In this document: positions 17,366-31,167 of the stretch, in pieces | Layout of the letters: every line of letters begins with the position of its first letter | How positions within the stretch are numbered: the stretch's first letter is position 1 | Assembly: GCA_934660865.1 (NCBI GenBank) | Contig: CAKUIA010000001.1 | Span: 173,226-205,225 of the forward strand | DNA length: 32,000 nt | Direction: 5' to 3' | Source: an uncultured Opitutales bacterium | Lineage (GTDB): Bacteria; Verrucomicrobiota; Verrucomicrobiia; Opitutales; Intestinicryptomonadaceae | Notes under the pieces: model-generated | What the model was told of the DNA's origin: nothing | Databases searched by the model: none | Seen by the model: the letters and a program-made list of their open reading frames with translations, nothing else | Translations under genes and position numbers: made by a program

Positions 17366-17399
17366 ATTTTTGTCCTTTCAAAATTTGTCTCTTTAAAAA

Positions 17400-18731
17400 C
17401 TATTCGTTCGAGAAGATTTGGAATCCGTTGTAGGCCTCCATTGCGTGTTCGGAAATATCCAAGCCCTTCAATTCGTCGCTCTTGCTTACCCTTATACCCA
17501 TTGTCTTTTTCATTGTGTAGAAGATTGCAAAGCTTATCGAAACGCTTGCCGCAGCCACTGCAACTATGCCTATTATTTGCGGTAAAAGCTCGTGGTCGGG
17601 CGAGAACAGGCCAACGGCCAAAGTTCCCCAAACACCGCATACCAAGTGTACCGAAAGCGCGCCAACGGGGTCGTCGATTTGCAGCTTGTCGAAAGCGTAT
17701 ACCGCAATTACAACTATCACACCCGAGATTGCGCCGATTAGGCACGAAGCTTGAATCGATACGCAGTCGGCAGAAGCCGTAATACCTACCAGGCCAGCCA
17801 AGCAGCCGTTAAGAACCATCGACAAGTCGGGCTTGCCTTGCGCTATCCACGAAGTGAACATTGCAGCCATTAAGCCCGCCGCGGCCGACAAAGCCGTTGT
17901 TGTAAATACGTAGGCCACCATTACGGGATCGGCGCTAAATACCGAAGCTCCGTTAAAGCCGAACCAACCGAACCACAGCAAAAATACGCCCAATGTTGCA
18001 AAGCCCAAGTTGCTGCCGGGAATTGCGTGAGCGGTCTTGCCCACATACTTGCCGATTCTCGGCCCTACCAAAATTGCGCCTACTAAGGCCGCCCAACCGC
18101 CTACGCTGTGCACGAATGTAGAACCCGCCAAGTCGTAGAAGCCGAGCTTTGCCAGCCAGCCGCCGCCCCAGCCCCACGAGCCAATAAGCGTGTAGCCGAA
18201 CGCCGCATAGATTATTGCAAAGATTATGTATGCGCTAAACTTTATCCTTTCGGCAACCGCACCCGAAACAATGGTTACGGAAGTTGCGGCAAACATGCCT
18301 TGAAAAATAAAGTCCGTCCAATAGCCGTAGTTGCCGCCGTTATAGGCAATGGCTCCCAACGCGCCCTCGGGCGAGGAAACGCCCAAGCCGATAAAGCCCA
18401 GCACGCCGTTTATAAGCCAGGAATCTTTCGGATACATAATGCTAAAACCGATTACCACATAGGTAAGCAAACCTATTGCCACCGTGATAACGTTTTTAGA
18501 CAGAATGTTTACGCTGTTCTTTGCGCGGCATAAACCCGTTTCTACCAGTGCAAACCCGGGGTGCATTGCAAAAACCAAAATTGCGCCCAAAAGTATCCAC
18601 AAGTTGTTAATTGTAAACATTTCGTTCGACACAGCGGGCGCTGCAGCCTCGGCGTTTGCCGCCACCTCTTGCCCGAATGCGGAACACGCACCCATCAGTG
18701 CGCCTATATATAACAATGTCTTTAGTCTCAT
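17400..18731 (-). CDS. amt: Ammonium transporter (Amt family)
   Basis: 443 aa with a signal peptide and 11 TM helices. Conserved motifs include FVHSVGGWAALVGA and the second pore His in SVHLVCGVWGTL. Confidence 0.95.
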   Translation of the reverse strand: MRLKTLLYIGALMGACSAFGQEVAANAEAAAPAVSNEMFTINNLWILLGAILVFAMHPGFALVETGLCRAKNSVNILSKNVITVAIGLLTYVVIGFSIMYPKDSWLINGVLGFIGLGVSSPEGALGAIAYNGGNYGYWTDFIFQGMFAATSVTIVSGAVAERIKFSAYIIFAIIYAAFGYTLIGSWGWGGGWLAKLGFYDLAGSTFVHSVGGWAALVGAILVGPRIGKYVGKTAHAIPGSNLGFATLGVFLLWFGWFGFNGASVFSADPVMVAYVFTTTALSAAAGLMAAMFTSWIAQGKPDLSMVLNGCLAGLVGITASADCVSIQASCLIGAISGVIVVIAVYAFDKLQIDDPVGALSVHLVCGVWGTLAVGLFSPDHELLPQIIGIVAVAAASVSISFAIFYTMKKTMGIRVSKSDELKGLDISEHAMEAYNGFQIFSNE

Positions 18732-18752
18732 AACCGTAAATTGTTTGAATTT

Positions 18753-19094
18753 TTAACCTATTGCCTCGCGCCCCGTTTCGCGCGTTCTTACGCGAATACA
18801 CTCCTCGACGTTCAATACAAAAATTTTGCCGTCGCCGATATGGTCGGTTTGGGCGCCTTTTATAATAGACTCTATGGTCTGGTCGAGATACTCGTCGTTA
18901 ACGGCGATTTCCAAGCGTACTTTTTTAAGGAGGTTTACCTCTCTAACATTTCCGCGATAGTTTTCGCTATAACCCTTCTGCCTTCCGCAGCCGAGTGCGT
19001 TGGTAACCGATAGCCTGTATATTTCGTTCTTGAAGAGTTCCTTTTTTACCTCTCCAAGTTGTTCGGGCTTAATGTATGCTATTATTAGTTTCAT
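18753..19094 (-). CDS. glnK: P-II nitrogen regulatory protein (GlnK-type, linked to amt)
   Basis: 113 aa from the internal ATG at 19094 (MKLIIAYIKPEQL...GCGRQKG...IGDGKIFV...RVRT). The 49-codon upstream extension of the tracked ORF would run through the sigma-54 promoter. Confidence 0.9.
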   Translation of the reverse strand: MKLIIAYIKPEQLGEVKKELFKNEIYRLSVTNALGCGRQKGYSENYRGNVREVNLLKKVRLEIAVNDEYLDQTIESIIKGAQTDHIGDGKIFVLNVEECIRVRTRETGREAIG

Positions 19095-19125
19095 TTTTTT
19101 GGAATGATGAGATACTTTCTTGATA

Positions 19126-19141
19126 AGCATAAAGCGTGCCA
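19126..19141 (-). promoter_or_regulatory. Sigma-54 (-24/-12) promoter of glnK-amt-GSIII
   Basis: The minus strand reads TGGCAC-GCTTT-ATGCT. The GG/GC spacing is exactly that of the TGGCAC-N5-TTGC consensus, and it lies 32-47 nt upstream of the glnK ATG. Confidence 0.8.
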
Positions 19142-19275
19142 GTTTTTTTGCGCATTTTTGCAAAAAGACGGCAAAACCCGAAAACCCCGCATAAATACTA
19201 AGACCTACAAGAATGTATGCACCTGCAAAATTGGCGCGCACAAAAAAGTAGTCGGCATAAGGCCTATTTTTGGCC

Positions 19276-19331
19276 TTTGTATGCTACAAATTTGTTGCAA
19301 CTACATTTTTGTGCTACTACAAATTTGTAGT
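19276..19331. promoter_or_regulatory. Upstream activator sequence: three tandem 16-bp palindromic sites
   Basis: GCTACAAATTTGTTGC (19283-19298), ACTACATTTTTGTGCT (19300-19315) and ACTACAAATTTGTAGT (19316-19331, a perfect palindrome), preceded by a TTTGTA half-site at 19276. The site centres lie 150-183 bp upstream of the -24 element. Confidence 0.7.
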
Positions 19332-19348
19332 TCGGTAAAATATACAAC

Positions 19349-19377
19349 AAAAAAGGCGGTGCATTTAAGCACCGCCC
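19349..19377 (-). terminator. Rho-independent terminator after the dapF-like gene
   Basis: The minus strand reads GGCGGTGC-TTAAAT-GCACCGCC followed by TTTTTTG, 25 nt after the stop at 19401. Confidence 0.85.
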
Positions 19378-19400
19378 GACAACAATCCAATTTACACAAA

Positions 19401-20261
19401 TTACATATTGGGAATGTCTTGCGTTAAAACGCTATCGAACATTTCGTATACCCCCACTTTTGTAGCGGGCCCGCTCATTGTTATAGAATAGTCGGGTTTT
19501 ATAGAAATTTTCAAAATTCCCCCCGGCATATGGACAGTTATGTCGCCCTCGCATAAGCCAAGTTTGTAGGCAACGCTTGCCGCCGCGCTAGAGCTTGAAC
19601 CCGAAGCCAAGGTATAGCCTGCGCCCCTCTCCCAAATTTGTATGTTAATGTTGTTTTTGTCTACAACCTCCAAAAACTGCACATTTGTTCTGTTGGGGAA
19701 TTTTTTCGTCATATTCTCCAAAACGGGGCCAATTTTGTGCGCAATTTCCGACGAAACCTTTTTCATGGGCACAACGCAATGCGGGTTGCCCACCGTTGCA
19801 CAGCAGTATTTATAGGCAACGCCGTCTATTACAACCTCCTGGTTTATAACTTCACCCTTTACTCCGTTTACGGGAATCTTGTCGGCGTCGAAGCTTACGC
19901 GCCCCATTTCAACGGTAATGTAGTCGCCGTTTTGCGAAACCGTGCACGAAACTACGCCGCCTAAGGTGTCTACCGTAAAGGGTTTGTTTTCCTCTACGCG
20001 CCCCGTGTCGAACAAATAGCGCGAAAATATCCTAAGGCCGTTGCCGCTTTTTTCGGCCTCGCTGGCGTCGGGGTTTAAAATGCGCAATTTAAAGTCGGCC
20101 TTGTCGCTCTTTTCGGGGCCGAACAAAATTCCGTCGCTTCCCAAGCCGAAATTTCTGTGGCAGATTTTAACAACGTCCAAGCCCTGCGGGCAAACGGGGC
20201 AGTCTTTGGGGTCTAAAACCAGATAGTCGTTGCCCAATGCGTGGTATTTATAAAACTTCAT
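19401..20261 (-). CDS. dapF: Diaminopimelate-epimerase-family protein (DapF fold) with both catalytic Cys positions occupied by Ser
   Basis: 286 aa from the ATG at 20261 (MKFYKYHALGNDYLVLD), 13 nt after the dapL stop. DapF motifs GNDY, GSDG, NPDASEAEKSGNG, GNPH and ERGAGYTLASGSS are present. The two active-site Cys of canonical DapF (..CGNG.., ..ACG[ST]G..) are Ser here. Confidence 0.8.
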   Translation of the reverse strand: MKFYKYHALGNDYLVLDPKDCPVCPQGLDVVKICHRNFGLGSDGILFGPEKSDKADFKLRILNPDASEAEKSGNGLRIFSRYLFDTGRVEENKPFTVDTLGGVVSCTVSQNGDYITVEMGRVSFDADKIPVNGVKGEVINQEVVIDGVAYKYCCATVGNPHCVVPMKKVSSEIAHKIGPVLENMTKKFPNRTNVQFLEVVDKNNINIQIWERGAGYTLASGSSSSAAASVAYKLGLCEGDITVHMPGGILKISIKPDYSITMSGPATKVGVYEMFDSVLTQDIPNM

Positions 20262-20274
20262 TTTTGTATCCTTG

Positions 20275-21513
20275 TTAAAATTCGAATTTCGACTGCGACA
20301 TTCTCTTTTTGATTTCGGCAACAACGGCCTTTTCGGCCTCTGCGCCGTGCGCTTCGAAGGTTACCGAAAACCTTACATACGGGCCTTCGTCGTCCCACGG
20401 GACAGTGCTTATAAGGTGCTGCGAAATCATCCACTGCGAAAAATCCTCGCCCGATTTAAACTTTGTTTTGCTCCCGTCTTTGTCTACCGCGGCTTTTGGG
20501 GCTTTCATATAAAGGAAAAATCCCGCCTTGGGCTTTTTGGGGCAAAAGCCCAAATCTTTTAGCACGCCCACAAGCAAATCCATACGCCTTGAATATTTGG
20601 CGGCAATTTGCCTTGTAATAAGCGGGTTTTCAAGCCCCTTGGCTCCCGCAAGCTGTATGCCCAAAAACTGCCCTGAATCGCAGTTGTCCTTAACGTCGCC
20701 GTAGGCTTTTACAAGCAGGGGGTTGCCGCAAACCCAGCCTATTCTCCAGCCCGTCATATTGTGGCTTTTCGACATCGAATGCAGCTCAAGAGCCACGTCT
20801 TTGGCGCCTTGAACCTGAAATATCGAAAGCGAAGGCCCTTCGAACGTTAAAGACGCGTACGCGGCGTCGGAAATTATTATTATGGAATTTTCCTTTGCAA
20901 ACTTTACAAGCTTTTCGAAAAATTCAAGAGTTGCGCTTGCGCCCGTGGGGTTGTTCGGATAGTTTACAACCATAACCTTTGCCCTTTTCCTTATGTCTTG
21001 GGGAATGGAATCCAAGTCGGGCAAAAAGTTGTTTTCTTCGGAAAGCTTTACGTTGTATACTTCGCCGCCCAGATATTTTGCGTGCGTGCCGAAAACGGGG
21101 TAGCCGGGAATTGTCATTATAACAACGTCTTTTGGGTTTATAAAGCAATAGGGCAAAATGCTCAGGGCCGCCTTGGAACCTATCGAGTGTATGATTTCGG
21201 TGTCGGGATCTAGCTGTACGCCGAAAACCGCCTTCATATAGGAAGCGGCTGCAACCTTAAAATCCCTGCCGCCGTTGTCGGCATAGCCGCGGTTTGCGGG
21301 GTTTTTCGCCGCCGCATACAAAGCCTCTACAACTTCGGGGAAAGCCATTTCGTCGGGCTCGCCTACGCCCATGTCTATAAGTTCAACATCGGGCTTGGCG
21401 GCTTTGGCCGCGCGCTTTGCCCTCTTGATTTTTTCGAACTTGTAAATTTCGTTCGTTTTGCCGTAGTTTACTCCGCCTATTCTTTCGGCGAACATATTTT
21501 GAAGGAATGTCAT
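20275..21513 (-). CDS. dapL: Class I/II PLP aminotransferase, probable LL-diaminopimelate aminotransferase
   Basis: 412 aa with IDMGVGEPD, NYPNNPTG and the PLP-lysine motif SMSKSHNMTGWRIGW. The function is inferred from family resemblance and adjacency to the DapF-family gene. Confidence 0.65.
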   Translation of the reverse strand: MTFLQNMFAERIGGVNYGKTNEIYKFEKIKRAKRAAKAAKPDVELIDMGVGEPDEMAFPEVVEALYAAAKNPANRGYADNGGRDFKVAAASYMKAVFGVQLDPDTEIIHSIGSKAALSILPYCFINPKDVVIMTIPGYPVFGTHAKYLGGEVYNVKLSEENNFLPDLDSIPQDIRKRAKVMVVNYPNNPTGASATLEFFEKLVKFAKENSIIIISDAAYASLTFEGPSLSIFQVQGAKDVALELHSMSKSHNMTGWRIGWVCGNPLLVKAYGDVKDNCDSGQFLGIQLAGAKGLENPLITRQIAAKYSRRMDLLVGVLKDLGFCPKKPKAGFFLYMKAPKAAVDKDGSKTKFKSGEDFSQWMISQHLISTVPWDDEGPYVRFSVTFEAHGAEAEKAVVAEIKKRMSQSKFEF

Positions 21514-21539
21514 TTTTGTACGAGTGTTTTGATTGTTTG

Positions 21540-23111
21540 TTATTTATATAAAAGCGGGTCTATATTCAGTTTTTTTATTTTATAGAGTATAATGCGCGGC
21601 GTGGTCTTTAAATATTTTGCGGCCGCGCTTGCGTTGCCGTTGTTTTTCTTTAGCGCGTTTATTATTATTTCGCGCTCGAAGTTGCCGACAAGCGTTTCGT
21701 AGTCGGTATTTTCGGGCTCTGCGCCGTCGCCCGCAAAGGCGGGGGCCGACGCCGTCGACAAATCGGTCTGCAAAGTCGGCGGCAAATTGTAGCCGCTAAT
21801 TACGTTGTCGGAAGTGTTTAAAACCGCATATTCCATGCAGTTTTCAAGCTCCCTTACGTTGCCCGGCCAATAGTATGAAGTCAGCATATTTATGGCCGTT
21901 GTGGAAATTCTCGAAACGCTTTTGTTGTGTATTAAATTGTATTTTTCCAAAAAGTGCTCGGCTAAAGACGTAATGTCGCACTTGCGGTTTCGCAGTGCGG
22001 GCAGATATATCGGGAATACGTTTAGGCGGTAGTACAAGTCTTCCCTAAAAGTTCCCTCCTTAATCATTTCCTCCAAATTGCGGCTTGTTGCGGCCAATAT
22101 GCGCACGTCTACCCTGCGCTCCTGGCTCGAGCCTACCCTAAAAAATGTGTGCTCTTGAATGAAGCGCAAAAGTTTTAACTGCATAAACAAGGTTAAGTCG
22201 CCGACTTCGTCCAAAAACAAAGTTCCCGTGTCTGCAACTTCAACCAAGCCCGCCTTGCGGTTTACAGCCCCCGTAAACGAGCCCTTTTCGTGGCCGAACA
22301 ATTCGCTTTCTATAAGGCCTTCGGGCAATGCCGCGCAGTTTATGGAAACAAACGGTTTGTCTTTTCTAAGCGAATTTTTCTGGATTGCGCGCGCAACAAG
22401 CTCTTTGCCCGTGCCCGATTCGCCCCTTATTAAAACCGTAGCGTTCGAAGAGGCCACTTTGAAAATCATCGAATACACCTTTTTCATATTCGCGCAATTC
22501 CCCACAATTTCGGTGGGGCGCAGCTTGTTTTCAAGCTCAAGGTGCAAACGCTTGTTTTCGCTTATCAGCTTTTCTCGCTCTTCAACTTCGGCGTAGGCTG
22601 CGTAAACGGCGTCGGCCATAATGTTGGCTATAATTTCAAGCAGGCGCAAATCGGCGTCTAAATCGGTGTTTTCGTCGGTTTTGCGGTCTATGCTTATGGT
22701 GCCAATTACGTCGTCCATATATATAATGGGAACGCAAATAAAGGCCACGTTTGTTTCGCCCGAGCGCGCGCCCGTGCGGTTTAAAAAGCCTTTTTCCTTC
22801 GAAACATCGGCAATTACGCGCGGCTTGCCCTCTAGCGCAACCATGCCCGTAATGCCCTCGCCTATGCGGTAGGTGCCGCGCTCGGCCTCGCGCTTGCTAA
22901 GCCCCTGCGAGGCCTCTATTACAAGCATATCGCCCTCGCGCAGAGCCACAGTGCCCCTAAGCAGACCCATTTCGGTATGCAATGTATCCAGAATCTGCGA
23001 AATCATCTCCTGCACCGACGATCTCTTTGCCACAAGGTGGCTTATTTTCTTTAATACTTCAATGCTAACGTGTAGGTGGTTGTCCATAAGCTGGTGTTTG
23101 TTTTGCGGCAC
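21540..23111 (-). CDS. Sigma-54-dependent transcriptional activator, GAF - AAA+ - Fis-type HTH (NifA-like architecture)
   Basis: N-terminal GAF-like domain (no receiver domain). AAA+ core with Walker A GESGTGKE, the sigma-54 contact loop ESELFGHEKGSFTGA, Walker B LFLDEVG, and WPGNVRELEN. C-terminal HTH NASAAAKYLKTTPRIILYKIKKLNI. The tracked start is GTG at 23111; an alternative ATG is at 23087. Confidence 0.92.
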   Translation of the reverse strand: MPQNKHQLMDNHLHVSIEVLKKISHLVAKRSSVQEMISQILDTLHTEMGLLRGTVALREGDMLVIEASQGLSKREAERGTYRIGEGITGMVALEGKPRVIADVSKEKGFLNRTGARSGETNVAFICVPIIYMDDVIGTISIDRKTDENTDLDADLRLLEIIANIMADAVYAAYAEVEEREKLISENKRLHLELENKLRPTEIVGNCANMKKVYSMIFKVASSNATVLIRGESGTGKELVARAIQKNSLRKDKPFVSINCAALPEGLIESELFGHEKGSFTGAVNRKAGLVEVADTGTLFLDEVGDLTLFMQLKLLRFIQEHTFFRVGSSQERRVDVRILAATSRNLEEMIKEGTFREDLYYRLNVFPIYLPALRNRKCDITSLAEHFLEKYNLIHNKSVSRISTTAINMLTSYYWPGNVRELENCMEYAVLNTSDNVISGYNLPPTLQTDLSTASAPAFAGDGAEPENTDYETLVGNFEREIIINALKKNNGNASAAAKYLKTTPRIILYKIKKLNIDPLLYK

Positions 23112-23170
23112 AATGCAGGCCGAAGGCGAAAACTTTGTTATATGTTTTTTAGCTCCTTTTGCATTGTGCC
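23107..23170. repeat. 11-bp perfect inverted repeat bracketing the gltB-activator intergenic region
   Basis: GGCACAATGCA (23107-23117) and TGCATTGTGCC (23160-23170) with a 42-nt spacer. The promoter-distal arm contains the GTG start codon (23109-23111) of the activator. Confidence 0.7.
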
Positions 23171-23186
23171 CGTTTAATTTTCCGGT

Positions 23187-26100
23187 TTAAGAATTTGCGC
23201 GCTTTGCCAAGGCAGCCCTGTAGTCGATTGGGAACACTTTTACAAACTTCGGCAAAAATTCGCTCCAGTTGTTTAAAATGTTTTCGGCAACATAGCTGTT
23301 TGTTGCGTTGTAATAGTCTTGAATAATGCCCCTTAGTTCGGCGTCCGACTCGGAATTTTCGGCAATGCTTTCCAAGTCTACGCTTTCAAGGTTGCACCTT
23401 CTGTCGAACTGACCGTCGGCGTCGAGCACATAGGCAAAGCCGCCCGTCATGCCGGCCGCAAAGTTAAAGCCTGTCGGGCCCAAAACTACAACGCGCCCGC
23501 CCGTCATATATTCGCAGCAGTGGTCGCCCGCGCCCTCGGTTACAATAACGGCCCCGCTGTTTCTGATTGCAAGCCTTTCGCCCGCAAGGCCGTTTATGTA
23601 AATCTTGCCGTTCGTAGCGCCGTAGCCGATTACGTTGCCGGCAATAACGTTCTTCGAGGCGTTTTCCCTTTCGGCGTCGTACGCCTTTATGAAGATATTG
23701 CCGCCCGAAAGGCTCTTGCCTATATAGTCGTTGGCTTCGCCGGTAAGGGTAAAGTTTATGCCGTGGCACAGGAACGCGCCAAAGCTTTGCCCGGCGCAGC
23801 CCGTAAAGTTTGCGTTTACGGCGTTTTCGGGCAAATTGCCGTCGCCCCACTTTTTGGCCGCTACGCCCGCAAGCATTGCGCCAACGCTTCTGTCGAAGTT
23901 GTGTATTTCAAAGCTTTCGGTGTGCGAAGAGCCGTTTTCCAAACTTTCGGCAAAGGCCCCAAGCAGTTTTTTGTCGTAGGCGTCCTTCAATTCCCTTTCG
24001 GCAAGGCCGGCCGACTTTCTCGGAGAGTTTTCGTCGGCAATTTGCGCAAACATCTTCGAAAAGTCCAAATTCTTCGACTTCCAAAAATCCAGCGCGCCGT
24101 CTTTGTCGAGCAAGTCGCTGCGGCCTACGGCCTCGTCTATGGACCTTAGCCCCAACGACGCCAAAATTTCCCTGGTTTCTTCGGCTACAAAGCGCAGGTA
24201 GTTTTCGATATGTTCGGGCTTGCCCGCAAACTTTTTGCGCAACTGCTCGTCTTGCGTTGCAACGCCGACGGGGCAGCAGTTCTTGTGGCATACGCGCCTC
24301 ATTACGCAGCCTATTGCAACCAAAATGGAGGTTGCAAAACCGAATTCCTCGGCGCCAAGCAACGCGCCTATTACAACGTCGCGGCCCGTCTTTATCTGGC
24401 CGTCTACCTGAACGCGAATCTTGTCGCGCAGGCCGTTTAGGCGCAGCGTTTGCTGGGTTTCGGCCAAACCTATTTCCCAGGGAGCACCCGCATATTTAAT
24501 GCTGGTTAAAGGAGACGCCCCCGTGCCGCCGTCGTGGCCGCTAATAAGAACCATGTCGGCCTTGGCCTTTGCAACGCCCGCCGCAACCGTGCCTACGCCG
24601 GCTTCGGAAACAAGCTTTACGGAAACCCTTGCGCTTTCGTTTGAATTGCGCAGGTCGTATATAAGCTGGGCAAGGTCTTCTATTGAATAAATGTCGTGGT
24701 GCGGCGGCGGCGATATCAAAGTTACCCCCGGAATGGAGTGCCTGATTTTTGCTATTATCGAGTTTACCTTGTAGCCGGGCAGCTGGCCACCCTCGCCGGG
24801 CTTTGCGCCCTGGGCAACCTTTATCTGCAGTTCCTTTGCGTTTGCCAAATAGGCGGCCGTTACGCCGAATCTGCCGCTTGCAATCTGCTTTATTGCGCTG
24901 GAGCTTTCGGTGTTAAAGCGGCTTTCGTCTTCGCCGCCCTCGCCGCAGTTGCTCATTGCGCCAAGCCTGTTCATTGCAACGGCTATGGTTTGGTGCGCCT
25001 CGGGCGAAAGCGCGCCGAAACTCATTGCGCCGCTTACAAAGCGCTTTACAATGCTTTCGGTGCTTTCAACTTCGCTTAAAGGCAATGGGGTTGCCGCCGT
25101 CTTAAACTTGAACAAGCCCCTTAAAGTGCAAAGCCTGCGCGCCTGGTTGTTTACAAAATCGGCATACTGGCGGTAAAGCTTTTCGTCGTTATTCCTTACC
25201 GACCTTTGCAAAAGCGATATGCTTGCGGGAGTCCACAAATGGTTTTCGCCGTCTTTTGCATACTTGTATTTGCCCGCGTTTTCCAAAACGTTTTCCTCGC
25301 CGAACTTCGGGTAGTGCGTGTTGCGGTACCTTTCCAAAATTTCGGTTGCAACCTCGTTTATGCCTATGCCGCCTATTCTGGACGACGTGCCCGAAAAATA
25401 GGTGTCTACAAATTCCTGCGAAAGGCCTATTGCCTCGAAAATCTGCGCCTGGCGGTAGCTTCGCAAAGTGGAAATGCCCATTTTCGACATTATCTTTAAA
25501 AGCCCCTTCTTTATGGCGGTTATGTAGTTTTCGGCGGCTCTTGCGGCGTCGATATTGTCTATCTGGCCGTCCTTTACCATTTCGGCAACGGTTTCTATAG
25601 CCAAATAGGGGTTTATTGCCGTAGCTCCATACCCAAGCAAAAGCGCAAAGTGCATAATTTCGCGCGATTCGCCCGTTTCGGCCACAATGCCCGCGGCATA
25701 GCGCAAGCTGCACTTTACAAGCCTTGTGTTTACGGCGGCCACAGCCAAAAGCATCGGTATAGGCGCATAGCCGTAGTCAAGGTTCTTGTCGCTTAAAATT
25801 ATAACCGTTTTAGAATCCCTTACCGCGTTTTCGGCGTCGTCGCAAATTTTTTCCATTGCGCGCTTTAGGGCTTCTACGCCGCCTTCGGCCGAAAACTGCG
25901 CCTTAATTGTTACCGACTGGAACGTAGGCAACTTGGAAGAGCGCATGCAGGAAATGTCGTGGTTGGTTAAAATCGGGCACGGCAGCTTTAGCAGGTGCGC
26001 CAACGAAGGCGACTCTACAAGCGAGTTTCCGCAGTTGCCTATGTAGGTTGTCAAGCTCATTACAAGCGACTCCCTTATCGGGTCTATCGGCGGGTTTGTT

Positions 26101-27653
26101 ACCTGGGCAAACAGCTGCTTAAAGTAGTCGTACAAAAGCTGCGGCTTTTCGGAAAGCACGGGCAAAGCCGCGTCGTTGCCCATCGAGCCTATGGGCTCTT
26201 TTGCGTCTACGGCCATGGGCTTTAAAATCAAATCCAAATCCTCTTTTGTATAGCCGAAAAGTTTTTGCCTTTGAATAAGGTTTTCGCCTATGGACGGAGC
26301 TTCGGAATTTTCGAATATGCCGGGCAGCTCTATTCTGTTTTCCTGAACCCAGCGGCGGTAGGGCTTGGCTCGGGCAAGCACCGTTTTAATTTCGGTGTCG
26401 TGCATTACCCTACCCTTTTCGGCGTCTATATAAACCATTTCGCCGGGGCGCAAACGTCCCTTTAAGGCTATGTCGTTTTCGGGCAAATCCAAAACGCCCG
26501 TTTCGCTTGCCAAAACAAACAAGCCGCTTTTCGTTATCGTATAGCGGGCGGGTCTTAAACCGTTGCGGTCTAGCAAAGCGCCCGACTGCGTGCCGTTGGT
26601 AAATACCAAGGCCGCGGGGCCGTCCCACGGTTCGCTTACGCCCGAATGGTATTCAAAAAAGCCCTGAATGTCTTTGCTGATATGGAAAGACTTGCCCCAC
26701 GCCTGGGGAACAAGCATAAGCATTGTATGCGGTAGCTTGCGCCCAGCCTGGCAATAAAATTCGACGGCGTTGTCCAAACAGGCCGAGTCGCTCTGGTTGG
26801 GGCTAATTACGGGCAAAAGCTTCTTTATATTGTCGCCGAAAAGCGGGGTTGAAAAATGCTCTTGGCGCATATTCATTTGGTTGATATTGCCGCGCAAGGT
26901 GTTTATTTCGCCGTTGTGGGCCAAATATCTGAAAGGCTGCGCCAAAGGCCATGTCGGGAAAGTGTTTGTAGAATACCTTTGATGTATAAGCGAAATTGCG
27001 CTTACATAAGTTTCGTCGCTTAAGTCGGGGTAAAACTGCTTTAGCTGGGGAGCGTTTAAAAGCCCCTTGTATACAACCGTTTTTGCCGAAAGCGAGCAAA
27101 TGTAAAAAGATTCAATATTTTCGGCCGCAATTTTGTTTTCTATTACCCTGCGCAATATATACAGGCTGCGCTCCATTTCCTCTGCGCTTAAGCCGCTTTT
27201 TGCTATGAACAACTGCTCTATGTTCGGGCAACTGTTAAGGGCTATGCCGCTTATTGCAGACTTGTCGACGGGAACCGTTCTTTCGGCTACGAACGAAAAC
27301 CCTTCGCTTGCCAGACAGCCCTTGAAAATTTCCACACACTTTTTTACCGAAGATTCGTCTTGGGGCAAAAACAGCATTGCAACTGCATATTCGCCAAGCT
27401 TGGGCAGCTTTTCGCCCAATACCTTTCTAAAAAACGCGTCGGGGATTTGGGTTAGAATGCCAGCGCCGTCGCCCGTGTGCGAATCTCCGCCAACTGCGCC
27501 CCTGTGTAGGAGTCTTTCCAAAACTTTAATGCCGTCCAAAACAATTTGGTGGCTTGCGCGGCCCTTAATGTCGCTGATAAGGCCAACACCGCAAGCGTCG
27601 TGTTCGTTTTTGGGACTATACATTCCCTGTTCTTTTGGATAATACATCTGCAT
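23187..27653 (-). CDS. gltB: Glutamate synthase large (alpha) subunit
   Basis: 1488 aa. It has a class-II amidotransferase N-terminus with a propeptide then Cys (NEHDACGVGLISD), a central domain, an FMN/3Fe-4S domain (RRVCHKNCCPVGVATQD) and a C-terminal GXGXG beta-helix domain. No small-subunit (gltD) gene is adjacent. Confidence 0.95.
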   Translation of the reverse strand: MQMYYPKEQGMYSPKNEHDACGVGLISDIKGRASHQIVLDGIKVLERLLHRGAVGGDSHTGDGAGILTQIPDAFFRKVLGEKLPKLGEYAVAMLFLPQDESSVKKCVEIFKGCLASEGFSFVAERTVPVDKSAISGIALNSCPNIEQLFIAKSGLSAEEMERSLYILRRVIENKIAAENIESFYICSLSAKTVVYKGLLNAPQLKQFYPDLSDETYVSAISLIHQRYSTNTFPTWPLAQPFRYLAHNGEINTLRGNINQMNMRQEHFSTPLFGDNIKKLLPVISPNQSDSACLDNAVEFYCQAGRKLPHTMLMLVPQAWGKSFHISKDIQGFFEYHSGVSEPWDGPAALVFTNGTQSGALLDRNGLRPARYTITKSGLFVLASETGVLDLPENDIALKGRLRPGEMVYIDAEKGRVMHDTEIKTVLARAKPYRRWVQENRIELPGIFENSEAPSIGENLIQRQKLFGYTKEDLDLILKPMAVDAKEPIGSMGNDAALPVLSEKPQLLYDYFKQLFAQVTNPPIDPIRESLVMSLTTYIGNCGNSLVESPSLAHLLKLPCPILTNHDISCMRSSKLPTFQSVTIKAQFSAEGGVEALKRAMEKICDDAENAVRDSKTVIILSDKNLDYGYAPIPMLLAVAAVNTRLVKCSLRYAAGIVAETGESREIMHFALLLGYGATAINPYLAIETVAEMVKDGQIDNIDAARAAENYITAIKKGLLKIMSKMGISTLRSYRQAQIFEAIGLSQEFVDTYFSGTSSRIGGIGINEVATEILERYRNTHYPKFGEENVLENAGKYKYAKDGENHLWTPASISLLQRSVRNNDEKLYRQYADFVNNQARRLCTLRGLFKFKTAATPLPLSEVESTESIVKRFVSGAMSFGALSPEAHQTIAVAMNRLGAMSNCGEGGEDESRFNTESSSAIKQIASGRFGVTAAYLANAKELQIKVAQGAKPGEGGQLPGYKVNSIIAKIRHSIPGVTLISPPPHHDIYSIEDLAQLIYDLRNSNESARVSVKLVSEAGVGTVAAGVAKAKADMVLISGHDGGTGASPLTSIKYAGAPWEIGLAETQQTLRLNGLRDKIRVQVDGQIKTGRDVVIGALLGAEEFGFATSILVAIGCVMRRVCHKNCCPVGVATQDEQLRKKFAGKPEHIENYLRFVAEETREILASLGLRSIDEAVGRSDLLDKDGALDFWKSKNLDFSKMFAQIADENSPRKSAGLAERELKDAYDKKLLGAFAESLENGSSHTESFEIHNFDRSVGAMLAGVAAKKWGDGNLPENAVNANFTGCAGQSFGAFLCHGINFTLTGEANDYIGKSLSGGNIFIKAYDAERENASKNVIAGNVIGYGATNGKIYINGLAGERLAIRNSGAVIVTEGAGDHCCEYMTGGRVVVLGPTGFNFAAGMTGGFAYVLDADGQFDRRCNLESVDLESIAENSESDAELRGIIQDYYNATNSYVAENILNNWSEFLPKFVKVFPIDYRAALAKRANS

Positions 27654-27681
27654 AATTGTAATTGTTGTTTGCTAATTATGT

Positions 27682-27697
27682 AGCAAATTGCGTGCCA
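27682..27697 (-). promoter_or_regulatory. Sigma-54 (-24/-12) promoter of gltB, activator, dapL, dapF
   Basis: The minus strand reads TGGCAC-GCAAT-TTGCT, 29-44 nt upstream of the gltB ATG (27653). Confidence 0.85.
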
Positions 27698-27771
27698 GTT
27701 TCGAAAAACATTTTTGCAATTTTACATAACTAGCTTATTATCATATTTATATCTTAGAACATATGCGGAAC

Positions 27772-27885
27772 AACTTTTTTGTAGGCATTCCCGACAAATT
27801 TGCAGACTACAAATTTGTCGCAAACAAATTTGTTGAAACTACATTTTTGTTGCAAGAAAATTCTTATTTTTGCTACAAAAAAGTT
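27772..27885. promoter_or_regulatory. Upstream activator sequence: four tandem 16-bp palindromic sites framed by a 13-bp inverted repeat
   Basis: CCGACAAATTTGCAGA (27791-27806), ACTACAAATTTGTCGC (27806-27821), CAAACAAATTTGTTGA (27821-27836) and ACTACATTTTTGTTGC (27838-27853). They are flanked by AACTTTTTTGTAG (27772-27784) and its exact reverse complement CTACAAAAAAGTT (27873-27885). Confidence 0.7.
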
Positions 27886-27913
27886 TTTTGGCGGCATTTT
27901 TTGCCCACTTTTT

Positions 27914-27934
27914 AAAAACCTTAAGCTTTTAAGG
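27914..27934 (-). terminator. Weak terminator-like hairpin after nadE
   Basis: The minus strand reads CCTTAA-AAGC-TTAAGG followed by TTTTT, 16 nt after the nadE stop. The stem is AT-rich, so read-through is plausible. Confidence 0.45.
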
Positions 27935-27949
27935 CACAAAAAAGTAGTT

Positions 27950-29590
27950 TTATTTGTCAAAAAAGCCGCGCGCGCTTACGGGAATTTTGCGGTCGGTTAA
28001 AAATGCCGTGCCTGTAAGCTTTGGCCCAAGCGGATATTGGCTGCGCTTGCCCTGTGTTTTTGCAAGTTTATTTAGAACGTCTAAAACAATTTCCCTTTTG
28101 TAGCCTTTTTCGATTATTTCCTCCGCCGACATAAAGTTTTCTATTCTAAGGCGCAAAATTGCGTCTAAAACTTCGTATTCGGGCAGGCTGTCGCTATCTT
28201 TTTGGTCGGGTCTAAGCTCGGCCGAGGGCGGTTTTGTTATTGTATTTTGCGGAATTATCTCTTTGTTGTGCAACTTATTTATGTATTTTGCAAGGGCGTA
28301 GACATCGCATTTGTACACATCGCAAATGGGGGCATACGCGCCGCAGGTGTCGCCATATAAAGTGCAATAGCCGACAGCACATTCGCTTTTATTACCAGTT
28401 GTAAGCAAAAGACTTGAAAATTTATTCGACAACGCCATAAGCAGCAAAGCCCTTGTTCTAGACTGCAGGTTTTCTTCGGTTGTATCGCGTGGCAAACCCT
28501 TAAACAAATCGGCCAACGTATTTTCGGCAGAACTTACAACTTCTTTTATTGCAATAATATCAAACTTTATACCTAAATTTTCAGCCAAAGCCTGGGCGTC
28601 TTGCACACTGCCTGTGCTTGAAAATTTAGAGGGCAAAGCCACCCCCCTTACATTTTCGCACCCTAAGGCGTCTACAGCCAAAGCGGCAACTACGGCCGAA
28701 TCTATGCCGCCGCTAAGCCCCAGCAACACGCTTTTTGCCCCGCACTTTTTAACAAAATCGCCTATTGCCATAACTATTGCAGAATATATATCCGCTATGC
28801 CAGAAAAGTCGCTACCATTTGAATTAAAGCCCGTTATGGCGTTTGTATCTATAACAAGCCCGTCTTCGGCGAATTTTTTAAGGCATACCGAAGCGTTTTT
28901 GTTTGCGTCTATATACGTCGAAGCCCCCGCAAATATTATCTCGTCGGTAGCCCCAACTAAATTGCACCACAAAACGGGAGCTTTGACTTTTTTCGAGATA
29001 TTATAAAGCATTCCGTTGCAATGCCTTACATTGTCGTTTGTCTGCGAAAACACGCTGGCCGAAATATTTATAAGCAAGTCGCAGTTTTCCATTTCGTCTA
29101 AGGGGTGCTTGCTGTACCTATAGGCGGTTTTTACTTCGTTTAAAGTCCAAATATCTTCGCAAATGGTTATGGCAATTTTTTTACCGTTAAAATCAATATA
29201 GGCACATTCGTTGCCGGACTCAAAAACGCGGGGGTCGTTCAGGGCGCCGTAATTCGGCAAAAGGCGCTTATCGTAAACAAGTTCCACCTTTTTATTTCGT
29301 ATCCAAAAAGCCGAGTTGTAAACGTGTCCGTTTTTGCCTATGCGAGGGCAGCCCACCAAAACGGGCAGTTCAAAATAGCGCATTGCACCCTGCAGGGCTT
29401 CTTCTGCGCCGCGCACAAAACTTTTATATTTTGCAAAGTCTTTTATGGGATAACCCGATACCGCGCACTCTGCAAAAACCGCAAAATCGGCTCCCTGTTT
29501 TTTTAAATTGCGCGTTGCCTGCACAATTTTGGCAACATTTAAGTCGAATGCGCCAACCTGCGCGTTAATCTGCCCTACTCCAATTTTCAT
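27950..29590 (-). CDS. nadE: Glutamine-dependent NAD+ synthetase (N-terminal CN-hydrolase/glutaminase domain plus NAD synthetase domain)
   Basis: The nitrilase-type triad context is present (FAECAVSGYP, YDKRLLPNYG, ITICEDIW), as is the ATP-PPase motif LSGGIDSAV. I prefer the start MKIGVGQIN (ATG at 29590). The tracked ORF starts 3 codons earlier (29599), but that ATG lies inside the predicted promoter-to-TSS interval. Confidence 0.9.
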   Translation of the reverse strand: MKIGVGQINAQVGAFDLNVAKIVQATRNLKKQGADFAVFAECAVSGYPIKDFAKYKSFVRGAEEALQGAMRYFELPVLVGCPRIGKNGHVYNSAFWIRNKKVELVYDKRLLPNYGALNDPRVFESGNECAYIDFNGKKIAITICEDIWTLNEVKTAYRYSKHPLDEMENCDLLINISASVFSQTNDNVRHCNGMLYNISKKVKAPVLWCNLVGATDEIIFAGASTYIDANKNASVCLKKFAEDGLVIDTNAITGFNSNGSDFSGIADIYSAIVMAIGDFVKKCGAKSVLLGLSGGIDSAVVAALAVDALGCENVRGVALPSKFSSTGSVQDAQALAENLGIKFDIIAIKEVVSSAENTLADLFKGLPRDTTEENLQSRTRALLLMALSNKFSSLLLTTGNKSECAVGYCTLYGDTCGAYAPICDVYKCDVYALAKYINKLHNKEIIPQNTITKPPSAELRPDQKDSDSLPEYEVLDAILRLRIENFMSAEEIIEKGYKREIVLDVLNKLAKTQGKRSQYPLGPKLTGTAFLTDRKIPVSARGFFDK

Positions 29591-29605
29591 AATCAACATA
29601 TTTGT

Positions 29606-29621
29606 AGCAAAAGGCGTGCCA
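29606..29621 (-). promoter_or_regulatory. Sigma-54 (-24/-12) promoter of nadE
   Basis: The minus strand reads TGGCAC-GCCTT-TTGCT. The -12 GC is only about 17 nt upstream of the ATG at 29590. Confidence 0.75.
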
Positions 29622-29729
29622 CTTTTGTATAAAAATTTCGCCGTTTATTTGCATTTATATATGTATAAATAAGTTATAAAAATGCAAATTTTGCGCAAGA
29701 CACACTACATATAGACCTGCAATAAAAAC

Positions 29730-29760
29730 AAAAAAAGCAAACTACAAAATTGTAGTTTGC
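29730..29760 (-). terminator. Terminator of the glycosyltransferase gene whose stem is a copy of the UAS palindrome
   Basis: GCAAACTACAA-AA-TTGTAGTTTGC (29737-29760; 11-bp arms) is followed on the minus strand by T7 (29730-29736). The core ACTACAAAATTGTAGT differs at 1 of 16 positions from the glnK site ACTACAAATTTGTAGT. Its centre is 128 bp upstream of the nadE -24 element. Confidence 0.7.
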
Positions 29761-29786
29761 CCTGTTTTGCGCGGGTTTTGAATTTG

Positions 29787-31001
29787 TCATTCTTTTATGC
29801 TGCTTTTTATAATTTCAAAATATTTTCTTGTCTGCAAAACTTTGTCTACGTTTATTTCGCTAAACTTTCGGGCATTTTGCCCCATTTGCCTTAAGCTGTC
29901 GCGCTCGGCATAGGCCTTTAGGAAAACATCGGCAAGCTCTTTTGCGCTGCCGTGGGCAACAGTGTAGCCCAAGTTGTTTTTCCTTATAATTTCGGCAATT
30001 TCGCTATTTTGGTCTACAATAGAAAGCAAGGGCGAACCCGCCGACATTATAGCCCAGGTTTTGGACGGCAGCGACATTCTCGAAACGCCCGATTCTATCG
30101 AAACCATTTCGACATCGCCGATACCGTAGACTTCGGACACGCGCGAAACGGGCTGCAAGGGGAAAACCGAAACGTTTTTCATTTTGTTTTTTTCGACATA
30201 TTCAAGCAGCTGCTTTTTGTAGGAGCCGTCGCCAATAAGAACAAAGTGTATGGGAGTATTTTCAACGCTCTTTATCGCCTGCAATATCATAGGCCAGCCC
30301 TGAAAATAGCCGATATCGCCCGCATACGAAATTATAAAGCGGCTTTTGTCTATATTAAGCTCGTCCATTAGGCGGTTTTCGCTGCGCGGCACGGGGCAAA
30401 CGGTTTTAGTGTCTGTCCAGTTATACACCGAAAAAACCTTGTCGGGGTTGCCGCCGTTTTCGACTATCGTGTTTTTCATATCGGCCGAAATTGTTATCAC
30501 GGCGCTTGCCGCATTATACACGCGCTTTTCCATATATCTAAAAAAGCGTATGGCCAGGTTCCTTTCGCCCAGATTTTTTATGCGAATGATTGTGTCGGGA
30601 AAAAGGTCTTGCGCGTTGTATACAACGGGGGCGAATTTTGAAAGCAAAATGCCCGCCCACCCCAAAAACGGCGGCGAAGAATATATCAAATACGCGTCGG
30701 TTTTTATCTTCTTTGCCTGCCTATACAAAGTGTAGCTTAAGCGCAAATATTTTAACATTCGCAAAAAAAGCCCGCCGCCCTCGCCGCCTTTCGAGCCGAA
30801 ACGCATTACGGTAAGGTTCTCGGAAATCTTTTCGACACTGTGCGAAATGTAATACTCGCGCTTTTCGCGCGATATTTTCCTTGAGGGGAAACCCGTTATA
30901 ACCGTAACTTTTGCGCCGTTTTCGGCAAGCTGGGTTATAAGCTCGTTTTGCAGGGGGTGGTTTTCCTTACACAAATAACCTGTTATGTAAACTATATTCA
31001 T
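29787..31001 (-). CDS. GT4-family glycosyltransferase (WcaI/WbuB-like)
   Basis: From the ATG at 31001 it reads MNIVYITGY...LAENGAKVTVITGFP, a typical GT-B N-terminus. The C-terminal donor-binding region contains LPSKTWAIMSAGSPLL. The tracked ORF has a 20-codon upstream extension (31061) that looks non-native. Confidence 0.75.
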   Translation of the reverse strand: MNIVYITGYLCKENHPLQNELITQLAENGAKVTVITGFPSRKISREKREYYISHSVEKISENLTVMRFGSKGGEGGGLFLRMLKYLRLSYTLYRQAKKIKTDAYLIYSSPPFLGWAGILLSKFAPVVYNAQDLFPDTIIRIKNLGERNLAIRFFRYMEKRVYNAASAVITISADMKNTIVENGGNPDKVFSVYNWTDTKTVCPVPRSENRLMDELNIDKSRFIISYAGDIGYFQGWPMILQAIKSVENTPIHFVLIGDGSYKKQLLEYVEKNKMKNVSVFPLQPVSRVSEVYGIGDVEMVSIESGVSRMSLPSKTWAIMSAGSPLLSIVDQNSEIAEIIRKNNLGYTVAHGSAKELADVFLKAYAERDSLRQMGQNARKFSEINVDKVLQTRKYFEIIKSSIKE

Positions 31002-31167
31002 AATGCGCAAATATGCACGCAAATGCCTGCATAAAAAATCTCCCCAAATTCTTCCAAACATAGCCCGCCGTGTCGAGATTTTTCAATTAAAACGCTTTGC
31101 CCGACAAAAAACTGTTGAATTTGCGTTAAAAAATTTGTACCGTTTTGCACACTATTAAACAAGCATT

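Follow-up and report, generated by a model that had tools for sequence, protein, structure and literature searches.

A 16-bp palindrome upstream of sigma-54 promoters in gut Opitutales: candidate sites of a NifA-like activator of nitrogen assimilation

Here we analyse a 32,000-nt stretch of DNA (the window) from a human-gut metagenome-assembled genome (MAG) of the Opitutales (Verrucomicrobiota), in which copies of a 16-bp palindrome lie upstream of the three sigma-54 promoters of nadE, gltB and glnB. With a probability of roughly 0.8, based on comparative genomics, the palindromes constitute the upstream activating sequence of a nitrogen regulon and are the predicted sites of the activator encoded in the gltB operon, a protein with GAF, sigma-54 AAA+ and Fis-type helix-turn-helix (HTH) domains. 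The parts of a sigma-54 enhancer system are all found here: promoters with -24 GG and -12 GC elements, dyads centred 101.5-182.5 bp upstream of the -24 TGG, and an AAA+ activator with a GSFTGA loop and an HTH_8 domain. The whole is best described, from its sequence, as a putative sigma-54 enhancer serving a one-component nitrogen regulator of NifA-like type, with a core motif already predicted in another phylum.

The three promoters lie on the minus strand directly upstream of their genes and follow the pattern TGGCAC-N5-TTGC/ATGC, with perfect GG/GC elements. That of nadE (TGGCACGCCTTTTGC, 29607-29621) has a counterpart in the relative L140, where the nadE sigma-54 promoter is accompanied by two sites. 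The promoter of the operon comprising gltB, the activator (enhancer-binding protein, EBP) gene, dapL and dapF (TGGCACGCAATTTGC, 27683-27697) has orthologs in 12 species, and that of the glnB-amtB-glnN operon (TGGCACGCTTTATGC, 19127-19141) also occurs in loci L001 and L028.

Eight 16-mers had been reported in a sequence-only reading of the window, 15-17 bp apart within arrays and about 100-185 bp upstream of the -24 elements. All eight are found where that reading placed them, and the measured spacings and distances agree. The sites were scored with a 20-bp matrix trained on the sites of other species only, to avoid circularity, and compared with the best score per shuffled window (mean 10.9 bits, maximum 14.1). 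Five are strong, with 19.8-26.9 bits (6-13 bits over the shuffle maximum): GCTACAAATTTGTTGC (19283-19298; centre 149.5 bp upstream of the -24 TGG; 22.4 bits) and the perfect palindrome ACTACAAATTTGTAGT (19316-19331; 182.5 bp; 24.4 bits) upstream of glnB, ACTACAAATTTGTCGC (27806-27821; 116.5 bp; 22.3 bits) and ACTACATTTTTGTTGC (27838-27853; 148.5 bp; 19.8 bits) upstream of gltB, and ACTACAAAATTGTAGT (29741-29756; 127.5 bp; 26.9 bits, the highest of the window) upstream of nadE. Of the other three, a weaker site before glnB, ACTACATTTTTGTGCT (19300-19315; 166.5 bp; 13.4 bits), is marginal, and CCGACAAATTTGCAGA (27791-27806; 101.5 bp) and CAAACAAATTTGTTGA (27821-27836; 131.5 bp) before gltB, at 10.6 bits each, are at noise level taken alone. 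The motif had also been said to occur only upstream of the three promoters, which holds for the strong sites but not for a motif-like sequence at 29593-29608 (17.7 bits) and a match in glnN at 16562 (14.4 bits). The spacers between sites and promoters, described as AT-rich, are so at gltB (GC content 0.27) and nadE (0.25) but less so at glnB (0.41; window 0.47).

The perfect palindrome has four matches in the window with up to three mismatches, against 0.15 expected, and none of 100 shuffles reached four; its 10-bp core, with up to one mismatch, has 13 matches against 3.2 expected, a count unmatched by any shuffle. The gltB array consists of two interleaved sets, one with centres at 27798.5 and 27828.5 and the other at 27813.5 and 27845.5, thus 30 and 32 bp apart. 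Only array position makes the sites at 27791-27806 and 27821-27836 credible. The former corresponds approximately to a conserved site of relatives centred at 104.5 bp, and a packed array like that around the latter also precedes gltB in L140. Reading the arrays as NifA-type TGT-N10-ACA sites across adjacent palindromes was rejected, because the implied spacers are N6 or N7 and variable.

Some further sequences accompany the sites. The extra motif-like sequence TCAACATATTTGTAGC (plus strand, 29593-29608) overlaps both the -12 element and the start of transcription of nadE; as it is present in L001 but absent from L140, it was left out of the established sites, and its function is uncertain. Degenerate, half-matching copies (e.g. 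ACTACTTTTTTGTG, CTACAAAAAAGT) flank the arrays at 27868-27885, 27772-27790, 27931-27950 and 19246-19263, and the enhancers may extend past the eight listed sites. The three site-promoter spacers contain no match to the IHF consensus WATCARNNNNTTR.

A search with the activator protein yielded 20 Opitutales loci at 70-99% identity, including that of the cultured Intestinicryptomonas porci; the gene in the window shares 99% identity with a gene on contig CAKTSY010000004.1. The motif is present in at least 12 Opitutales species, with the consensus a-C-T/G-ACA-AwwT-TGT-A/C-G-t. On the gltB side, the sites of 12 species are centred 104.5 ± 2 and 136.5 ± 1.5 bp from the -24 TGG, and the activators of the species sharing this geometry are only 70-80% identical. 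Phylogenetic footprinting, a check proposed along with the sequence-only reading, thus finds both motif and position kept upstream of orthologous gltB promoters. In most relatives glnN and gltB are divergent, the latter in an operon gltB-gltD-activator, and their common intergenic region of ~400 bp contains a pair of divergent sigma-54 promoters together with two or three palindrome copies. When 8-mers shared among 12 orthologous intergenic regions are counted without bias, pieces of the palindrome come out on top (in up to 11 of the 12, against a shuffle maximum of 8), and pieces of the sigma-54 -24 element rank next.

The sites always accompany sigma-54 promoters through rearrangements of gene order. 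Relatives with divergent glnN and gltB have one common site pair; in the window, nadE followed by gltB and the glnB-amtB-glnN operon have their own sites each; and in L140 divergent nadE and glnB share one pair. Where glnB-amtB sits elsewhere (L006, L019), the motif is upstream of that operon too. In 526 kb of fetched loci, 30 of 31 strong sites lie in or beside these regulatory regions, the exception being at L036 14681; L036 and L037 provide two further exceptions, each with a site pair at an orphan sigma-54 promoter that neighbours the activator gene. The palindrome is thus not a dispersed repeat, its strong sites being confined to regulatory regions in this sample. The activator gene is part of the gltB operon in every Opitutales locus covering the region, and no strong sites occur in the loci of paralogous activators (L021-L033), nor in L034 or L035. 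The latter two contain distant activator orthologs, from Victivallis (L034) and from an 8.6-Mb genome (L035), and were set aside as uninformative, the genes being unlinked to nitrogen genes.

Several observations concern the promoters themselves. The start codon of nadE lies ~16 nt past the -12 GC of its promoter (29590-29621 in the window) and 13 nt past it in L140 (2137-2165), a distance that leaves no space for a Shine-Dalgarno sequence, so that the mRNA would be leaderless or nearly so. The gltB and glnB promoters of the window both have the sequence TTGCAAAAATG (27708-27722 and 19152-19166, respectively) precisely 11 nt upstream of TGGCAC, and a left half-site, [C/G][T/G]ACAAAATTGGCA, adjoins the gltB -24 element in the relatives L008, L011, L014, L015, L017 and L018. 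These sequences may represent a half-site close to the promoter, or an extended preference at the -24 element. A further sigma-54-like match, a loose fourth one, TGGCATATATCATGCA (9185-9200, minus strand), lies within an acrB-like gene with no palindrome upstream and is probably due to chance. The orphan promoter of L036 (minus strand, 9746, within 9400-9921; the same in L037) has strong sites 134.5 and 167.5 bp upstream. Downstream of it there is only a 61-aa lysine-rich open reading frame (ORF; 9519-9704) that lacks any Pfam match and has terminator-like hairpins after it, and the region has no convincing Rfam match; the product may be a nitrogen-regulated small protein or a small RNA.

The activator gene (21540-23087, minus strand, likely start ATG at 23087) encodes a protein with the Pfam domains GAF, Sigma54_activat (PF00158, 6e-71), AAA_lid_14 and HTH_8, in which GSFTGA forms the sigma-54 contact loop. 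By sequence the protein is classed as NifA-like, yet it fails to qualify as a NifA equivalog: its best NCBIfam model is NifA (TIGR01817), with 461.7 bits, under the equivalog cut-off of 528.85. Among solved structures, too, the best match over the full length is a NifA (PDB 9qq6). The NtrC model (TIGR01818) matches residues 188-514 only, the N-terminus being a GAF domain with no receiver domain. The recognition helix, TTPRIILYKIKKL (TPRIILYKIK) compared with MTPRQIAYRIQTL (TPRQIAYRIQ) in NifA, is kept within the Opitutales group.

In the proposed mechanism, a dimer of the activator would bind each 16-bp dyad (aC[T/G]ACA-AwwT-TGT[A/C]Gt) through its C-terminal Fis-type HTH, and dimers on neighbouring dyads would nucleate the active AAA+ oligomer. 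Dyads ~30-32 bp apart are about three helical turns apart and would therefore lie on the same face of the DNA; in this genome, two such in-phase sets would be interleaved at 15-17 bp. With looping of the AT-rich spacer, the oligomer would contact sigma-54 RNA polymerase at the -24/-12 elements, ATP hydrolysis would then open the promoter, and nadE, gltB and glnB-amtB-glnN would be switched on. The gap of ~100 nt between gltB and the activator gene contains no obvious terminator, which makes their co-transcription, and hence positive autoregulation of the activator, plausible; activation of gltB would then also raise expression of the activator gene in a positive feedback. By analogy to NifA, the nitrogen signal presumably enters via the GAF domain, in the form of 2-oxoglutarate and/or PII.

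The motif extends well beyond the Opitutales. A metagenome scan for a site pair (CTACAWWWWTGTAG, 12-24 bp, ACAWWWWTGT), specified by the motif only, gave at least 120 loci. Among the 120 loci listed, 61 contain amtB (31), glnB (29), glnN (14), gltB (8), nadE (5) and/or a homolog of the activator (31). A sigma-54 promoter is present at enhancer distance in 42 of the loci listed, with the sites mostly ~96-100 and 126-130 bp away and 30-31 bp apart from centre to centre. The second site, constrained at ACA/TGT only, still has T/A at ±5 and C/G at ±6 (cTACA..TGTAg). The 17 complete activator genes among the loci listed can be aligned from GAF to HTH at 44-51% identity. Further downstream genes in this set include those for type I glutamine synthetase (glnA), cyanase (cynS), glnD, gatC, a TRAP-type binding protein, an ABC ATPase, an amino-acid permease fused to PII, a Gcw_chp outer-membrane protein and, once, nifH. 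Where nitrogen genes are lacking, the listed loci are shorter and richer in AT (median GC 0.40 vs 0.50), and many of these matches are probably due to chance. Tandem arrays with a 29-bp period and an ACAwwwwTGT core (L100 1008-2844; L053 3054-3170), with no nitrogen genes nearby, were taken as an unrelated satellite repeat.

Three types of downstream gene in these loci deserve description. In L084 (a 631-aa ORF) and L127, an amino-acid permease with a C-terminal PII domain is encoded directly downstream of a site pair and sigma-54 promoter. In L141 (minus strand, promoter ~316), an AT-rich metagenome contig, nifH is preceded by a sigma-54 promoter with paired sites 128 and 158 bp from its -24 TGG, and the motif may control nitrogenase in some lineages too. 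A conserved secreted protein of ~260 aa is encoded by the first ORF past the promoter in L063, L064, L079, L116 and L157, and often comes first in motif-controlled amtB operons of environmental lineages. It begins ...FE[LV][ST]xDFxxKY[IV]WRGQN and matches Gcw_chp weakly; it may form a channel for ammonium in the outer membrane.

Homologs close to one such activator carry the name 'nif-specific NifA' in MAGs of Spirochaetales, Desulfomonile, Planctomycetota and Thermodesulfobacteriota. Four of these genomes (L158-L161) have the activator beside amtB-glnB, glnA, nadE or gltB, with no nif genes within 20 kb, so that the annotation probably misleads. A clear pair of sites precedes glnA in the Spirochaetales locus; in each of the remaining three there is one clear site or degenerate CTAC-N6-GTAG copies, as judged by eye. 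The balance tips slightly towards a single ancient master switch of nitrogen assimilation, consisting of a cTACA-N4-TGTAg dyad pair and a one-component GAF-type activator, common to Verrucomicrobiota, Planctomycetota, Spirochaetota and Thermodesulfobacteriota, with a near-fixed geometry (dyads three turns apart, ~100/130 bp from the -24 element) and mislabelled 'nif-specific', the Opitutales element serving also as a terminator hairpin. To our knowledge, such a switch has never been studied experimentally.

The precedent for the motif is a computationally predicted regulon in the Desulfovibrionales (Kazakov et al. 2015, BMC Genomics 16:919, PMC4641369), that of the one-component sigma-54 activator DVU1949, assigned to 'nitrogen metabolism and transport'. 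Its motif was predicted as the 16-bp palindrome TTtACAwwwwTGTaAA, the 100 published sites giving TT[T/G]ACAwwwwTGT[A/C]AA, and its regulon table gives locus tags only (PMC4641369). When symmetrised tables of the 100 published and 35 Opitutales sites are compared, the two sets prefer the same bases over the inner 12 bp, whereas the outer two positions are TT/AA for DVU1949 and AC/GT in Opitutales ([A/G]C[T/G]ACAAwwTTGT[A/C]G[T/C]). From the locus tags, we take the DVU1949 targets to be amt-glnB, glutamine synthetase (GS) and glutamate synthase (GOGAT); so read, the targets match those in the window, where ammonium transport, PII, GS and GOGAT stand behind sigma-54 promoters. The DVU1949 regulon belongs to another phylum and is likewise a computational prediction. 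Its DNA-binding domain is of the canonical NifA type (19/35 identical to PDB 9qq6) and is identical to that of the window activator at 12 of 36 residues (local Smith-Waterman, with the 42-residue DVU1949 domain only), so that the two systems need not share a common descent; BLASTP of the 42-residue domain gave no alignment. DVU0569, with the closest DNA-binding domain, was rejected as a motif precedent, its predicted motif being TGG-N16-CCA-like. The literature search found no paper besides that of Kazakov et al. mentioning DVU1949, and none on sigma-54 nitrogen control in Opitutales. The description of the signal as previously undescribed is therefore right for this lineage, but the same inner 12 bp had been predicted for DVU1949 in 2015. 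The sole literature match for the core ACAAATTTGT is the site of Staphylococcus aureus GraR, an unrelated protein of the OmpR family, and was treated as coincidence.

Several points weigh against assigning the palindromes to the activator of the gltB operon. Two of the eight sites (27791-27806 and 27821-27836) do not rise above noise, and the nadE site could plausibly act as a terminator as well. In its DNA-binding domain the activator is less similar to DVU1949 (12/36) than to DVU0569 (19/40), whose predicted motif differs. The DVU1949 precedent is itself computational, and the likeness of its motif could reflect convergence or a wrong assignment in one of the lineages. In L161, and at the promoters beside the activator gene in L158 and L159, only degenerate copies are present, judged by eye and unscored. 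Finally, the scan covers ~32 kb of this genome, and other activators and off-target sites lie beyond view.

The palindrome might instead be a genuine nitrogen-control site bound by another protein, either a different EBP or a classical dimeric regulator encoded elsewhere, with the in-cluster activator recognising something else. The small part of the genome visible leaves room for such a regulator, likeness of DNA-binding domains does not track likeness of motifs (as also stated in the Desulfovibrio paper, PMC4641369), and the core ACAAATTTGT, being also the site of the OmpR-type GraR, shows that such palindromes are not exclusive to one fold. We nevertheless regard this as unlikely, in that the sites lie at enhancer distance from promoters that absolutely require an enhancer-binding protein, and a GAF-type activator gene is adjacent in every covering Opitutales locus and in 31 of the 120 motif-only loci listed, whereas the loci of paralogous activators lack the motif. 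The same observations support, at the level of comparative genomics, the earlier proposal that the palindrome is the candidate recognition sequence of the activator encoded in the cluster.

A second alternative, that the palindromes act as RNA or DNA structure (terminator hairpins or repeated extragenic palindromes) and not as protein sites, draws on the copy upstream of nadE. The site at 29741-29756 is contained in a terminator-like hairpin (29734-29763, minus strand; -19.8 kcal/mol, z = -4.8) of 13 pairs followed by a U7 run, which begins 24 nt past the stop codon of the glycosyltransferase gene (29787) and has the features of an intrinsic terminator. L001 keeps the hairpin, with a compensatory C>T / G>A change and additional GGG/CCC pairs outside the motif and one unpaired position within it; these changes argue that selection acts on the hairpin in addition to the site. 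The nadE element is thus probably both a terminator for the upstream gene and an enhancer. As an account of the palindromes in general, structure is very improbable: the remaining copies form only weak, AU-rich stems of 6 bp (-5.3 kcal/mol), those of relatives lie between divergent promoters, where no transcript ends, and dapF has its own GC-rich terminator, while the sequence and not pairing alone is conserved, at a fixed distance from the -24 element. Chance occurrence of AT-rich palindromes in AT-rich intergenic DNA, which could account for the two sites scoring no better than the best shuffled match and for the roughly half of listed metagenome matches in AT-rich contigs without nitrogen genes, is effectively refuted by mismatch counts that no shuffle reached, by geometry, by the shared 8-mers, by the matrix scores of the five strong sites, and by the conservation of position and sequence across species.

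All relevant genes, from the glycosyltransferase through glnN, are on the minus strand. The glycosyltransferase gene (29787-31061) is followed by nadE, encoding a glutamine-dependent NAD+ synthase (27950-29590, start MKIGVGQ), and then by the operon of gltB (GOGAT large subunit, 23187-27653), the activator gene and the distal genes dapL (LL-diaminopimelate aminotransferase, 20275-21513) and dapF (19401-20324). A GC-rich intrinsic terminator (19354-19377; -19.7 kcal/mol, followed by a U-run) closes this operon directly ahead of the glnB site array. The glnB-amtB-glnN operon (15233-19094) comprises glnB (PII, 18753-19094), amtB (17400-18731) and glnN (type III GS, 15233-17365). The gene annotation of the window includes no nif genes, and an Rfam scan of 19000-30000 gave no family match. 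In the window gltD is absent between gltB and the activator gene (23087-23190), and the LL-diaminopimelate aminotransferase and dapF genes come after the activator. In the gltB-gltD-activator operons of relatives, the intervening 489-aa protein (L012 8512-9981) has Fer4_20 and Pyr_redox_2 domains, as expected for the GOGAT small subunit.

The palindrome provides a candidate recognition sequence for the nitrogen-control circuit of gut and rumen Opitutales, including the cultured I. porci; for this abundant group the literature search found no study of regulation. It allows a nitrogen regulon to be read from MAGs, with GS, GOGAT, AmtB, PII and NAD synthase here, and elsewhere cyanase, GlnD, GatC, transporters and sometimes nifH. 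Its wide distribution and rigid spacing point to a system commonly used in place of NtrBC outside the Proteobacteria. Many proteins annotated 'nif-specific NifA' adjoin ammonium-assimilation genes, with no nif genes in the examined 20-kb neighbourhoods. The mechanism is a textbook one, and a motif almost identical to this one had been predicted for sulfate reducers in 2015 (PMC4641369); the interest of the system rests mainly on its breadth, its rigidity and the systematic misnaming as NifA.

Among well-known systems, NtrC at the enterobacterial glnAp2 promoter has the same physiological role, the sigma-54-dependent activation of GS, amtB-glnK and related genes. Tandem NtrC dyads about three turns apart nucleate the oligomer. 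The window activator has a GAF domain in place of the NtrC receiver domain, so no phosphorelay is implied, and the NtrC DNA motif is unrelated. NifA shares the GAF - AAA+ - Fis-type HTH architecture, and likewise uses dyad sites ~100-200 bp upstream of sigma-54 promoters. The half-sites in the window are inverted and closer together (ACA-N4-TGT, against TGT-N10-ACA for NifA), which confirms that the motif differs from NifA and NtrC sites, as had been stated from the sequence. The targets in the window are assimilation genes, without nif genes, whereas those of NifA concern nitrogen fixation. A single NifA site can suffice, and nadE, with a single listed upstream site, resembles NifA promoters of that kind.

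The 'NifA'-annotated activators of Spirochaetales, Planctomycetota, Desulfomonile and Thermodesulfobacteriota MAGs are 43-51% identical to the window activator over the full length, GAF domain included, and have the same neighbourhood (amtB-glnB-glnA-nadE-gltB). In this group, cTACA-N4-TGTAg pairs 30-31 bp apart lie upstream of sigma-54 promoters, usually 96-100 and 126-130 bp from the -24 element, compared with 104/136 bp in Opitutales. The recognition helix reads TERI[ML]G[YL][KR], compared with TPRIILYK in the window, and the group often controls the type I GS.

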